The position numbers and the translations under genes were made by a program. This document shows, piece by piece, positions 1-2,676 of a DNA stretch of 2,676 nt. The DNA comes from Escherichia coli. Lineage in GTDB: Bacteria > Pseudomonadota > Gammaproteobacteria > Enterobacterales > Enterobacteriaceae. The stretch lies in the NCBI RefSeq assembly GCF_003334355.1, contig NZ_QOWP01000072.1; one strand, 5' to 3'. Position 1 is the stretch's first letter. Every line of letters begins with the position of its first letter. The notes under the pieces were generated by a model. The model did no database searches, was not told the origin of the DNA, and saw nothing but the letters and a program-made list of their open reading frames with translations.

Positions 1-394
1 TTTCTTCCGCCTCCCGGATCCGGAACAGTTTTTCTGCTTCCGTATCCTTCACCCAGGCTGTGCCGTTCCACTTCTGAAACTCCCCTTCCGGCGATAACCA
101 GGTAACATTTTTCGGTAACGGACCGAGTTCAGAAATAAATAACGCGTCGCCGGAAGCCACGTCATAAACCGTTTTACCCCGATGATCTTCAACGAGATGC
201 CACGATGACTCATCACTGTTGAAAACAGCCACGAAGCCAGCCGGAATATCTGGCGGTGCAATATCGGTACTGTTTGCTGGCAGACCTGTATGAGGCGGAA
301 TATATGCATCACCTTCACCAATAAATTCATTAGTTCCGGCCAGCAGATTATAAATTGTTATGGTCCGTGGTTGTTCACTCATTCTGAATGCCAT
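1..394 (-). CDS. tfa: Tail fibre assembly protein / fibre chaperone (Tfa family); 3'-partial (first 131 codons, 394..2, plus one base of the next codon; C-terminal part outside window)
   Basis: ATG at 394..392 on the minus strand. Hand translation gives [131 protein letters not shown] with no stop down to position 2. From memory this is near-identical to the N-terminal domain of lambda Tfa and E. coli prophage Tfa paralogues. Sits directly 3' of stf with a 1-nt overlap. The track's 49..330 minus ORF is a different frame of the same DNA. Confidence 0.93.
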
Positions 395-2676
395 TATGCA
401 AGCCTCACAATATAGTTAAATGCGATGTTTTTGACGGTGTTTTCCGCGTTACCAGCAGCGTTAACGGTGATGGTGTGTCCATGTGAGCCAATCGCAACGG
501 AGTGCGTATGAGCACCAATACCGACAGTATGTGCGTGTGCACCTGCGCTTGCAGCAGTACCCGATACAGAGTGCGTATGAGCGCCTGCAGAAGAAGTGTT
601 AACACTGTATTTAGAATAATCAGGTGATCCACTTCCCGGAGCACCACTGGAACCACCTGAAACAAATGTCATCGAATGGGTATGTGCACCGGCTGAAGCA
701 GCCGTACCGCTAACACTATGGGTATGTGCACCAGTGTTATTCGTGGATTTAGTGCCGTAATCAAACGATGATGTGGTTTTCGTCCCCAAATCCGTACTGG
801 ATGCGCTGGCGCTGTGGGTGTGCGATTTAATGCCGTCCTGTTCCTGAGACAATACGGCACGACCACTGGCGGGCTTGCCCTTAATCGTCCAGCCACGCAT
901 ATCAGGAATAACGCCTGACGGATAAGCCACTGCAAGTTTCGGGTATGCAGATTTGTCAAAAGTCTGCCCCTGCATCAGGGCATAGCCAGACGGAACGGTA
1001 TCTGATGGCCACGGGATTGGTGCGCCGACTGGGTAGCTTTCTGGTGGAAGATTTTTCGAGGTATAAACTTCTGCCCAGTCATCCTCAAAACCATAACCGT
1101 CTCTTGAAGAACGGTAGAACAGACCACCATTTCTGTAATGCGCCTTCATCTGCAGGGTCCGGCAACTTCCGACTCCGGTATAGAAGTTAACCAGAATATA
1201 GCTGTCGCCAGAGCGAGTGACATTGTAAGCGCCTGATTCGGCATTCCATGGAACGCCACCATCCGCATCGGCATATGTATCCGTTGCCCTTCTGGCAAAA
1301 GCAGCCACATGCGCGGCGGTTAAAGTAATATCTTTGGAACCATCAAACTCAACACCAGAAACCCGTCTTGGCGTTTGCAGCTTTGTTGCTGTTAATGCAT
1401 TACCGTTCAGACTTGCGGACAGTTTGGTTCCAATAACCAGTTCGCCGGTTGCGTTATCAATAGCAAACGGTCTTAATGTATTCCAGCCACCATAAACATC
1501 ACCTTGATTGGTAAGCAGCAGGTAAGTTTTAGCGCCATCATTACGCCATAATGCACCATACTCTCCACCTATCATTCGAATCTGATTACCACCACGCGCT
1601 ACAATTTCGTCTGTGGCAAAAAGTTTTTTGCACGACAAGTTATCGTTAACGATTAACGAATGAGACTCATAAAAACCACGCCCACTCTTAAAATCAAGGA
1701 TAACGTCCGCCGCGATACATTCAGTCGCTGGATTTGTTGCCCCAAACTTATAGGTCGTATCATTAACAACGAGATCAGCACCAGGTGCGGATATTGACAG
1801 GCCATCTTCGATAAACGCAAAAACAGGGAAAGCAGCGCCATCAACATAGAACACAGAGCGCAAATCATCGCCCTTATTACTCATCATTATTGAGTGGATG
1901 GCTCGTTCATTGTTTTGATATTGCCAGAACATTCCATAAGCATAACGCCCCCTGTCAGTCCAGCCACCAGGCATAACAAATCCATTAAACTCGCAGTTAT
2001 TCATCGGATCGCCTGCGGTTCGCGTTGCCGTGGTGATAATGACCCTTGATGCCAGTTCGCTTACTGAGCCAGCAGAACGCATAACAACAACAGGGTAATA
2101 TTTTCCAGATGTTGCACCTGCAGGAGCGTTAACCCGCACATAACGCATACCACGCTTATCAGCAAAGTCTGTTTTACTGACCGCGTTAATGTTGTTCAGG
2201 AAGCGTCCCTTATCGGGTATATCAGCGCCGTTCTGGTCTTTCTGCAGACGTTTCTCTGCATTGTCATAGGCTGATTTTACTGCCTTTGGCGTTGCCGCCA
2301 GCGTTTCAGACGTACTGTTGGTCGCACTGCTGAGCTGTACTATCCCCTTTTTCGTCGTGCTCGCATCCTCAAGCGCCACGGCGGATGCAATATCCTCTGC
2401 CCGTTTTGCTGCTGTCTCGGCGCGCGTTGCCGCGGATTCCGCCGTACTTTTGCTCTGAGCTGCCGCTGCCGCACTGCCAGCAGCCTCTGTCGCCTTCGTG
2501 GATGCCGTCGTGGCGCTGCCCTTCGCTGCTGACGCCTGTCTGGTCGCCTCATCTTTTGAAGCAGACGCAGATGATGCCGATGACGCTGCCGAACTGGCGG
2601 ACGATGCGGCTGCCGTTTTTGAGGATTCTGCACGGGTTTCCGACGCTTTCGCGTTCGTTTCGGATGTCTTCGCTGC
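394..2676 (-). CDS. stf: Side tail fibre protein, lambdoid Stf family; 5'-partial (N-terminus beyond window end 2676); 760 sense codons in window plus stop TAA at 396..394
   Basis: Hand translation of the minus strand from 2676 down is continuously open in one frame to TAA at 396..394. The track's 661-aa ORF (394..2379) is this frame cut at an internal GTG; upstream in frame reads [46 protein letters not shown]... with no stop or start codon. Contains the conserved tail-fibre motif [30 protein letters not shown], a collar-like motif ([39 protein letters not shown]) and a C-terminal HxH array ending ...[11 protein letters not shown]. Followed immediately by tfa, the canonical stf-tfa order. 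Family call is from recalled similarity to lambda/Rac-type Stf, not a search. Confidence 0.93.
403..407 (-). promoter_or_regulatory. Probable Shine-Dalgarno element for tfa (TGAGG) inside the last codons of stf
   Basis: Minus strand upstream of the tfa ATG reads TTGTGAGGCTTGCATAATG: GAGG at 406..403 lies 8 nt upstream of ATG (394..392). The stf stop TAA (396..394) shares its last A with the tfa ATG (TAATG). Confidence 0.5.
472..825 (-). repeat. Protein-level repeat array within stf: seven His-X-His motifs (SHTHS, AHTHS x4, AHAHT, SHGHT) in Gly/Ser/Ala-rich context; predicted metal-binding fibre-tip (needle) region
   Basis: Direct translation of the last 143 codons of stf: [10 protein letters not shown]...[27 protein letters not shown]...[66 protein letters not shown]. 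Visible on the + strand as recurring gtgcgtatgagc / atgggtatgtgc motifs. This is a sub-region of the stf CDS, not a separate gene. Confidence 0.75.
826..1041 (-). other. Collar-like segment of Stf ([63 protein letters not shown]), immediately N-terminal to the HxH array
   Basis: Direct translation. The pattern (aromatic/Ala-rich stretch followed by IPDMRG-W-KG) resembles the 'phage tail collar' motif recalled from T4-type and lambdoid fibre proteins. The domain call is from pattern memory only. Confidence 0.4.
2263..2352 (-). other. Conserved tail-fibre motif ([30 protein letters not shown]) shared among tail fibres of otherwise unrelated phages (P2 H, Mu S, lambda Stf, T4 gp34/37 class)
   Basis: Direct translation. 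From memory the motif closely resembles the conserved segment described in comparisons of P2, Mu, lambda and T-even fibre genes. Position is within stf, just C-terminal of the Ala/Ser-rich segment. Confidence 0.55.
2380..2676 (-). repeat. Ala/Ser/Thr-rich low-complexity segment of Stf (includes the [12 protein letters not shown] motif and a [15 protein letters not shown] tract); presumed extended fibre shaft/linker
   Basis: Hand translation of the same frame as stf: [97 protein letters not shown]. The DNA is GC-rich and dominated by GCN/TCN/ACN codons. Sub-region of the stf CDS. Confidence 0.7.

Follow-up and report, generated by a model that had tools for sequence, protein, structure and literature searches.

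The closest described relatives of the fibre gene in the window (the whole 2,676-nt stretch of Escherichia coli DNA analyzed here, contig NZ_QOWP01000072.1) are StfR of the Rac prophage and the side tail fibre Stf of phage lambda (UniProt P03764), which belong to the same gene family and lie in the same J-lom-stf-tfa order. Lambda Stf carries the same motif at residues 354–385 (its core is given as 378–385), at the end of the proximal rod; residue 393 is the last of the proximal coiled-coil segment, and a hinge has been assigned to residues 394–422 (PMC12617516). It differs from the window in the sequence that follows AATPKAVK (VVMDETNRK...) and in a different, shorter central part, and at the DNA level the two resemble each other only in the proximal part, the tip and tfa. 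The stf gene of laboratory lambda is also split by a frameshift. The gpH fibre of P2 and the fibres of P2-like prophages harbor one or two copies of the motif, together with a related tip and tfa, and they share post-motif continuations with lambdoid alleles, including AAYDLANGKYTAQ followed by TVMDETNKK. Their N-terminal part, which binds a myovirus baseplate, is however unrelated, and similarity to the window begins at the N-terminal edge of the motif (position 2353).

Gin and Cin are the invertases that switch the S fibres of Mu and P1, and in these fibres the border between constant and exchangeable parts lies just behind the motif. Mu differs from the window by its programmed site-specific inversion at gixL, which spans S codons 166–174 and lies 25 codons after AATAKAVK. 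Another relative is the 'Pf2' domain (PF03406) of the collagen-like fibre proteins of EHEC prophages; these proteins are described as built of shuffled domains, with Pf2 as a conserved non-collagenous element that separates segments of the stalk (PMC3368898). Its profile is matched at full length in the window, where, unlike in those proteins, a single copy is flanked by a coiled-coil-like rod and a distal part of gp34/gp37 type, and collagen segments are absent. In a working lambda–P2 STF chimera (Brodel et al., Nature 2024; PMC11338833), lambda residues 1–393 are followed by P2 H starting at residue 251; the joint lies 8 residues behind AATPKAVK in lambda and 8 residues behind the second AATPKAVK in P2 H. 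This chimera is man-made and of the VMDETN(R/K) continuation class, whereas the window represents another class at the same natural joint. Shared fibre segments have been proposed as routes of horizontal exchange (Haggard-Ljungquist 1992; Sandmeier 1992, 1994, as cited by De Paepe 2014, PMC3945230), as the original prediction for this locus also stated.

The stf locus

Of the stf gene of a lambdoid prophage, the window covers the distal two thirds, with an open frame unbroken from the stop codon (394–396) to the right end. It differs from E. coli PSS-12 by a single base, the region being the J-lom-stf-tfa-pinQ end of a prophage, and shares 97.7% identity with stfR of the K-12 Rac prophage. The full gene has 1116 codons in L001, a near-identical locus where the order J-lom-stf-tfa is annotated at the end of the lambdoid tail module; the same order was found in lambda and 15 other fetched loci. 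The ATG of tfa (394–392) and the stop of stf (396–394) overlap by one base (TAATG on the minus strand), and in L001 the serine invertase gene pinQ adjoins tfaQ, 97 bp beyond it. The N-terminal collar domain that binds the tail tip (PF08400) lies beyond the window; the L001 gene is annotated as 'prophage tail fiber N-terminal domain-containing' and homologues 93–98% identical have a precomputed PF08400 match, the assignment to L001 resting on these homologues and the annotation. Gene order and this domain place the gene among the lambda-type side tail fibres (Stf/StfR).

The motif and the layout of the fibre

The 30-residue peptide from which this analysis started is the exact translation of positions 2263–2352 on the minus strand. 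It lies between the Ala/Ser/Thr-rich low-complexity segment and the central domain, and falls within a Phage_fiber_2 repeat unit that is not a chance match (Table 1), covering model positions 1–41 of 42 (window-protein residues 106–146) and thus effectively full length. Together with its extension it also aligns with residues 90–172 of Mu S (64 bits; PDB 5yvq, 8ju3). The window has one copy of the motif and sister alleles have one to three tandem copies at an exact spacing of 44 codons. Literature searches with the motif peptide strings returned nothing relevant, and those on Mu and PF03406 structure nothing usable on the motif fold.

On the proximal side, the low-complexity region corresponding to the rod is considered a putative coiled coil in prophage collagen-like fibres (Ghosh 2012, PMC3368898), and this part of lambda Stf has been assigned to the proximal coiled coil in the structural study of Ur-lambda (PMC12617516). 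The distal end is a tip of the T4 gp37 type by its match to the solved needle, His-x-His boxes included (PDB 2xgf, 302 bits, window-protein residues 545–760 against chain residues 26–242); matches to PF03335 (Phage_fiber) are weak.

Table 1. Features of the fibre gene and its neighbor in the window, by position
Feature	Position	Strand	Basis or remark
tfa 5' part, tail-fibre assembly chaperone	1..394	-	annotated tfaQ in L001 (locus 5819-6394 = window -181 to 394)
stf, side-tail-fibre gene	394..2676	-	distal 760 codons and stop; single open frame, gene runs past the right end of the window
Receptor-binding tip, T4 gp37-like	397..1044	-	PDB 2xgf; Pfam Collar and Phage_fiber
Collar domain in tip	883-1026		Pfam; tip also has His-box repeats
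Further junction cluster	1014-1035	-	fetched alleles and control DNA tiles
Central exchangeable cassette	1036..2184	-	all-or-none in E. coli genomes; unrelated DNA instead in most fetched alleles
Gp34_trimer domain, inside central cassette	1459-1758		Pfam PF21446, E 2e-27
Motif extension	2185..2262	-	common to P2-like H genes and Mu S; second junction at its distal end
Second junction	about 2185-2215	-	distal end of motif extension; near GC3 change-point (~2180)
Phage_fiber_2 repeat unit (PF03406)	2239..2361	-	Pfam 73.6 bits, E 9.3e-21
Main junction cluster	2258..2285 (28 nt)	-	loss of DNA similarity with most other lambdoid stf alleles, at ...AATPKAVK or immediately behind it
Near-invariant motif core KKG...AATPKAVK	2275-2352	-	conserved in 32/32 copies from 21 aligned loci
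Putative crossover interval in the motif	2320..2326 (core nt 30-36)	-	informative-site patterns
Proximal rod end, Ala/Ser/Thr-rich low-complexity, 'PCoil' in the literature	2371..2676	-	A 39%, S 24%, T 12%, GC2 0.80

Distribution of the motif

The motif had been said to be common to the tail fibres of phages with otherwise unrelated genomes, and this is borne out. By tblastn it was found in 427 phage records from many unrelated lineages, including lambda-like siphoviruses, P2/186, Mu, P1, Haemophilus HP1/HP2 and Stx podoviruses, with further carriers among Halomonas, Yersinia and Pasteurella phages. An exhaustive protein search with the motif gave 1705 clusters at 50% identity, with up to 20 matched stretches per protein. 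At the DNA level, megablast (which seeds on 28 identical bases) reported matches limited to the motif in genes with unrelated flanks (H189 and H190; 69 nt at 87% and 165 nt at 84%). Near-unchanged motif DNA in unrelated fibre genes would therefore act as a portable patch of homology. The matches listed by the full-length protein search were all near-identical alleles from E. coli and Shigella, of no help for breakpoints, which were mapped instead by the exhaustive motif-only protein search and by DNA tiles.

Where similarity breaks

A module boundary at the motif, where similarity among homologues should break, is supported at both the DNA and the protein level. Only 31% of the 3992 matching E. 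coli records are colinear across the motif; in an evenly spaced sample of 60 of these ranked records, 19 are colinear, 35 break within 2258–2285 and 6 more within 80 nt on the distal side, and since prophage alleles are related by descent these breakpoint counts do not represent independent events, the firm minimum being about five distal continuations plus the switch between lambdoid and P2 N-termini. Among the fetched lambdoid alleles, 14 of 17 break at 2258–2276. AATPKAVK is followed by at least five unrelated distal sequences (25–40% nucleotide identity, ungapped, vs. 92–99% in the proximal flank), and identical continuations occur behind lambdoid and P2-type N-termini. In 143 diverse representative proteins, 390 of the 398 motif alignments start at residues 451–461 and 297 end at residues 489–503; the N-terminal region is shared by only 2 of these proteins and a distal module by 30. 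Thus a segment present in the fibres of unrelated phages is also the place where similarity starts and stops, as expected of a mosaic joint of the kind proposed by Haggard-Ljungquist (1992) and Sandmeier (1994).

As a module boundary, the motif stands as predicted in that the dominant junction directly follows AATPKAVK, but the conserved unit is longer than the 30 residues proposed: it is extended by about 25 residues, at the end of which the second junction is found. Here the colinear alleles L004 and L015 drop from at least 95% to 45–70% identity with the window. Both had been reported as truncated by megablast and are actually colinear at 86% identity, so that the megablast truncations at query 224–253 were rejected as an exact-base junction in the case of H150, which is L015, a diverged colinear allele. 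H152 (L016), of the same truncation class, carries two copies, the distal one of which follows the window as far as 2216. Besides those at the motif, the control tiles showed junction clusters at 1014–1035 and about 698–719 only, and none within 1414–1962 of the central region. The central tile matched 1603 E. coli records, vs. 3992 for the motif tile, and 85% of the 1603 matches were full length.

Base composition across the motif

A composition shift, noted by eye in the original prediction as fitting a mosaic junction, exists and brackets the motif, and its visible part is mainly an effect of amino-acid composition. Total GC over the full gene in L001 is 0.61 in the rod, 0.505 in the motif with its extension and 0.464 in the central domain, and in the window it is 0.64–0.67 at 2351–2550 vs. 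0.41–0.47 at 1500–1900. The change-point of GC2, which falls from 0.80 to 0.51, precedes the motif by 15 codons (codon 449, about window 2398); as the drop lies mostly at second codon positions, it reflects the amino-acid content of the Ala/Ser/Thr rod and not origin, and the visible GC drop alone was rejected as proof of foreign DNA. A smaller synonymous shift (GC3 about 0.5 to 0.4) is nevertheless present and is significant at four-fold sites (0.57 vs. 0.39, Fisher p 2e-4). Maximum likelihood places it at codon 522 (about window 2180), at the motif or closely behind it; the support interval covers codons 475–544 (window 2113–2322), and 1 of 300 permutations attained the observed value. GC3 is 0.58–0.67 in J, lom and proximal stf vs. 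0.39–0.45 in distal stf and tfa. The compositional argument for a junction therefore stands at synonymous sites and is weaker than it looked by eye.

These data also bear on the idea that there is no real junction, the composition change being the end of the low-complexity segment and the partial matches ordinary divergence. The predominance of second codon positions and the colinearity of the two truncated alleles would suit it; the unrelated sequences that follow AATPKAVK behind a nearly identical proximal flank, the deficit of central-tile matches relative to the motif tile and the significant GC3 shift contradict it, and we consider it extremely improbable.

Probable crossover within the motif and proposed mechanism of exchange

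In comparisons with two-copy alleles, the 5' side of the window's motif follows 'copy 1' and the 3' side 'copy 2' (e.g., informative-site pattern 111111112122222222222), with Fisher p of 3e-5 to 1e-3 in four comparisons, the split having been chosen after viewing the alignment among about 20 possible split points. The single copy in the window thus appears to be a hybrid of two repeat-copy types that may record a past crossover. Three P2-like H genes match the window only at 2192–2353 and in the tip and tfa, and near window 2301 their identity steps up from about 71% to about 97%, a level kept from there down to 2192. The hybrid copy and this step are indirect signs of crossover in the motif in vivo. 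Moreover, in alleles whose N-terminal flank agrees at 93–99%, the motif itself is only 83–90% identical.

The motif is where receptor-binding ends of different kinds are fixed to one and the same fibre base, and we favor, with a probability of about 0.8, an exchange through homology at this joint. The motif is one copy of the Phage_fiber_2 structural repeat, and it would close the virion-proximal constant part of the side tail fibre, a trimer, immediately ahead of the bend towards the distal receptor-binding part. The unit is kept nearly unchanged, with stretches of identical DNA, in fibre genes of otherwise unrelated phages and prophages that come together in enterobacterial cells. The identity and spread of the motif, the clustering of breakpoints at it, the hybrid pattern and, from published work, the function of chimeras joined here are observations; we infer both the main cause, homologous recombination rather than selection on random joints, and the recombinase: general or phage-encoded homologous recombination would cross over inside the motif or at its end, and a second crossover might fall in the conserved tip/tfa region. 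The distal cassette would be swapped, sometimes with the chaperone gene, and the proximal attachment part would stay. Unequal crossover between tandem copies could account for their varying number (1 to 3 in the alleles compared), and the single copy of the window may be such a hybrid. In the laboratory, lambda recombines with the stf/tfa of Rac and Qin by relaxed homologous recombination (PMC3945230). [quoted passage not shown]

It could be argued that the motif is merely a structural repeat and that illegitimate joints arise anywhere, only those at the domain border being foldable, so that clustering reflects selection and the motif DNA is irrelevant. Selection on foldable chimeras would indeed cluster junctions at a domain border whatever the recombination mechanism, the motif stands at the proximal rod end before the hinge in Ur-lambda (PMC12617516), engineered joints 8 residues after it are functional (PMC11338833), and some proteins carry as many as 20 repeats of the unit, which is also found in distant taxa, where no DNA identity is to be expected. 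Against this, identity switches within the motif in homologous register and not at its borders alone, as in the copy-1/copy-2 hybrid and the 71% to 97% step against P2-like genes; genes with unrelated flanks share motif-only DNA matches (H189, H190); and copy number changes in exact 44-codon steps. This explanation seems unlikely to us.

In the opposite direction, the motif DNA could be a coding 'shuffling linker', homogenized or selected at synonymous sites, which would make fibre exchange quasi-programmed and not a by-product of structural conservation. The hybrid motif hints at this, as does the use of the same codon at 0.4–0.8 of identical residues between copies with unrelated flanks, against a rough codon-usage expectation of about 0.35 that is itself a guess; we hold this to be quite unlikely.

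A further possibility, proposed by Sandmeier in the summary given by De Paepe (2014; PMC3945230), is that exchange is driven by fibre-associated DNA invertases (Gin, Cin, Pin, Min) at crossover sites, or relics of them, beside the motif. An adjacent serine invertase gene is present in the source locus, where pinQ adjoins tfa, and the distance of gixL from AATAKAVK in Mu invites comparison: the window residues LNNINAVS (2176–2199) align with the Mu S residues encoded by gixL, and the second junction and the GC3 change-point coincide with them. The DNA does not follow, since only one of the nine codons is kept by inspection, and no 26-bp crossover site (core AAACCNNGGTTT) was found anywhere in stf with up to 2 mismatches. 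Likewise, the search for an inverted second site with an alternative distal part and chaperone gave only weak inverted repeats (71–88% over 14–24 nt, compared with a 43-nt pair of arms in Mu) and a single tfa in L001, and thus neither a convincing partner site nor an inverted second cassette. In addition, the dominant E. coli junction follows AATPKAVK immediately, about 25 codons short of the position that corresponds to gix, and the putative crossover in the motif is in homologous register. For this allele the invertase mechanism was rejected in view of the missing crossover site in stf, despite the position equivalent to that of Mu, and as a general explanation of the joint we regard it as very unlikely.

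Implications

The joint at the motif is a long-known feature of phage tail fibres, and its reading in this allele is therefore correct but ordinary. No new principle is involved: Pfam has a curated family for the motif, a part for it in horizontal transfer was already under discussion in the early 1990s, and working chimeras joined at this site have been published. This locus nevertheless provides a worked example, with two close junctions (after AATPKAVK and about 25 codons further on), a probable hybrid motif, and an exchangeable central cassette between the motif and the start of the collar domain. The exchange of tail-fibre cassettes sets phage host range, and this joint is where nature, and now engineers too, re-target lambda-, P2- and Mu-type particles.

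Identity and distribution of the motif

The 30 residues of the motif are the exact translation of window nucleotides 2263–2352 on the minus strand (residues 465–494 of the full protein), and they give a full-length match to Pfam family PF03406 (E 9.3e-21), so the resemblance is not due to chance. The original prediction held that the motif is common to the fibres of phages with otherwise unrelated genomes, and tblastn bears this out, with the motif present in 427 of 50,697 phage records, among them lambda-like and P2/186-like phages, Mu, P1, Haemophilus HP1/HP2, Stx-converting podoviruses and phages of Halomonas, Yersinia and Pasteurella. Among 1.84 billion representative proteins, searched exhaustively, the motif forms 1705 clusters (E ≤ 0.001), often with several copies per protein and up to 20, which makes it a repeat unit, in keeping with its Pfam name, rather than a one-off linker. 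Four motif-bearing representatives (P0130, P0140, P0149 and P0224) reach 2958–3377 residues, with 5–20 matched stretches. The proposal of a linker for horizontal exchange goes back to work of 1992–1994 which, as cited by De Paepe et al., 2014 (PMC3945230), places the motif in lambda Stf, P2 H, Mu S and P1 S and links it to such exchange. The same paper reviews earlier work on the passage of fibre genes from one phage to another, unrelated one, and shows relaxed homologous recombination to be the route by which lambda takes up stf/tfa DNA of Rac and Qin.

The gene and its domains

The minus strand holds a single long open frame of 760 codons, running from the right window edge to a stop at 394–396, which the start of a second gene overlaps by one base (TAATG) before leaving through the left edge. 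Against stfR/tfaR of the Rac prophage in K-12 the window shows 97.7% identity, and against several lambdoid phages 95–98%. It differs by a single base (position 2309) from the prophage end of E. coli PSS-12, where the genes annotated are, in order, J, lom, a gene of 1116 codons for a 'prophage tail fiber N-terminal domain-containing protein', tfaQ and pinQ. By identity and gene order, the long frame is thus stf, a side-tail-fibre gene of the lambda type, and the second gene is its chaperone gene, tfa. The differing base is G in the window and A in PSS-12, changing Ser to Phe within the motif (STSETL versus STFETL); Ser stands there in all other alleles examined. Strain GB089 is 100% identical over two 690-nt tiles (583–1272 and 1273–1962). 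The name 'short-chain fatty acid transporter', given to this fibre protein in many database entries, looks like a misannotation that has propagated.

Features of the window and of the fibre protein it encodes
Feature	Window position	Window-protein residues	Evidence or remark
tfa	1–394		chaperone gene
stf	394 to beyond 2676		minus strand
Motif	2263–2352		core at 2275–2352
Extension	2185–2262		~25 residues after motif
Second junction	~2185–2215		
Central cassette	1036–2184		
Phage_fiber_2		106–146	Pfam
Gp34_trimer		307–406	Pfam
Collar		551–598	Pfam
His-box repeats			Pfam, weak
T4 gp37 tip (2xgf)	397–1044	545–760	solved structure, 302 bits; final 216 residues end to end, His-x-His boxes included
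Mu fibre protein S (5yvq, 8ju3)		84–165 and other segments	solved structure
Mu fibre, distal to motif	1303–1590	363–458	further match
Mu fibre, distal to motif	1024–1311	456–551	further match; positions 321–415 of 8ju3 chain, deposited as Mu S fused to S'
First of these two, aligned to Mu S 268–336		354–422	overlaps gp34-like trimerisation domain
T4 gp34 and gp12			solved structures

The fibre of this temperate prophage has its receptor-binding tip in common with gp37 of the virulent T-even phage T4. Judged by these matches, the central cassette is itself pieced together from modules of both Mu-type and T4-type fibres.

Position of the similarity breaks

With the motif at its centre, a DNA query of 690 nt hit 3992 E. 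coli records, 31% of them at full coverage. Sixty rows were sampled at even steps down this ranking: 19 were colinear, 35 kept the proximal side and lost similarity at window 2258–2285, and 6 lost it at 2185–2215, so that homologue alignments do break at the motif as anticipated. The 21 fetched loci, compared by local blastn, give the same picture. In 14 of 17 lambdoid alleles proximal similarity (88–95% identity over ~1.5 kb) ends at 2258–2276 and returns only at ~1014–1067 or 1356–1404, within the tip and tfa; matches to three P2-like H genes are confined to 2192–2353 together with the tip and tfa. Beyond the motif query, two control tiles were placed in stf. The central part proved all-or-none (1603 records match, 85% at full length), with no junction cluster within 1414–1962, and the other clusters lie only at 1014–1035 (start of the Collar domain) and ~698–719 (His-box region). 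This pattern makes the motif the proximal edge of a cassette that can be exchanged; stf has about three such discrete joints, the motif among them. Further breaks and indels occur among the tip His-box repeats (698–719 and 580–707), probably through changes of repeat number in the needle domain.

The full Stf was also compared with its 150 best representatives, 143 of which gave alignments. Motif alignments start at residues 451–461 in 390 of 398 cases and never earlier, and 297 of the 398 end at residues 489–503; the N-terminal domain is also common to only 2 of the 143 proteins, and 30 have some distal module in common that is not contiguous with the motif.

Every lambdoid allele carries a stretch of 32 residues followed by (T/S)LAATPKAVK, after which at least five unrelated continuations are found: (S/A) plus a 19-residue sequence; AAYDLANGKYTAQDATTAQKG..., leading to another motif copy (1 to 3 copies, spaced by 44 codons); (V/A)VM(D/G)ETN(R/K)K...; AANDNANGRVPS...; and TVKDSSVQKTGD.... 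P2-type fibres have an unrelated N-terminus (IAEHEQSRRHPDA...) yet the same continuations. For most lambdoid alleles, ungapped nucleotide identity to the window is 92–99% over the 40 codons ahead of the motif core and 25–40% over the 40 codons past it.

Probable crossovers within the motif

Compared with two-copy alleles, the window motif is identical to copy 1 through core nucleotide 30 and to copy 2 from nucleotide 36, bar one base unique to the window among the aligned alleles. The informative sites read 111111112122222222222 (best split, Fisher p 3e-5 to 1e-3 in four comparisons), placing the switch at about window 2320–2326; such a hybrid is the pattern expected of an unequal crossover between tandem copies. 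With P2-like H genes, the motif is ~71% identical over its first half; from LAATPKAVK through the end of the extension the figure rises to ~97%, and similarity ends at 2192. Two colinear alleles (L004, L015) keep at least 95% identity to about 2215 and 45–70% past there. Selection for foldable joints surely contributes to the exchange pattern; alone it is not sufficient, because the identity switches sit within the motif and in register. Otherwise similar stf alleles (L006, L007, L008, L012, L013, L018 and L019) carry 1 to 3 motif copies in steps of exactly 44 codons (132 nt) with a constant linker, AAYDLANGKYTAQDATTAQ, which suggests that unequal crossing-over adjusts fibre length.

Composition across the motif

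Upstream of the motif lies an Ala/Ser/Thr-rich rod (340 residues with 39% Ala, 24% Ser and 12% Thr). Total GC is 0.61 in this rod, 0.505 in motif plus extension and 0.464 in the central part. At second codon positions it drops from 0.80 to 0.51; the change-point, codon 449, lies 15 codons ahead of the motif and simply marks where the Ala/Ser/Thr-rich sequence ends. The drop in third-position GC at four-fold sites is more modest (0.57 to 0.39, p 2e-4). The composition shift of the original prediction is thus real when computed and stf is not uniform, although the part visible by eye is mainly an amino-acid effect. The best GC3 change-point is codon 522 (support 475–544, window 2113–2322; equally good in 1 of 300 permutations), coinciding with the break of the two colinear alleles. 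GC3 is 0.58–0.67 in J, lom and proximal stf versus 0.39–0.45 in distal stf and tfa, a contrast that fits a separate history of the distal part.

Relation to invertase-switched fibres

In Mu, distal fibre parts are switched by programmed inversion. The inverted repeat bounding the G segment begins TTATCCAAAACCTCGGTTTACAGGAA at S codons 166–174 (FIQNLGLQE), 25 codons past AATAKAVK, and window residues LNNINAVS (2176–2199) align with this region; the Mu switch therefore stands at a position equivalent to the second junction of the window. The locus further resembles invertase-switched fibres in that a serine invertase gene, pinQ, adjoins tfaQ in the PSS-12 prophage (5131–5721 of that locus, ~280 bp beyond the left edge of the window), where it looks like an orphan invertase. 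An invertase origin of the second junction is plausible historically but unsupported for the window allele: stf contains no crossover-site core at up to 2 mismatches and the locus neither a convincing inverted partner site nor a second tfa, so site-specific inversion at work in this allele is rejected. In five other alleles (L005, L011, L017, L020 and L022) additional tfa genes, complete or partial, lie downstream; these may be what is left of invertible segments.

Significance of the joint

The account best supported, at roughly four chances in five, is that of a structural repeat, conserved at the proximal/distal border of the fibre, whose conservation at the DNA level would let homologous recombination swap distal cassettes. 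In lambda Stf, AATPKAVK occupies residues 378–385 and VVMDETNR residues 386–393, and Ur-lambda Stf consists of a proximal coiled coil (102–393), a hinge (394–422) bent by ~107–124 degrees and a distal part (PMC12617516); the motif thus sits at the fibre's knee, where it closes off the proximal rod. A P2-like H protein of 669 residues has its second AATPKAVK at 235–242 and TVMDETNK at 243–250, and the working lambda-P2 fibre of Brodel et al., 2024 (PMC11338833) joins lambda residues 1–393 to P2 H from 251. By these positions the engineered joint is the same as the natural joint after the motif. The motif is an ordinary, explained feature: a curated Pfam family whose link to exchange was already known and whose joint is already in engineering use.
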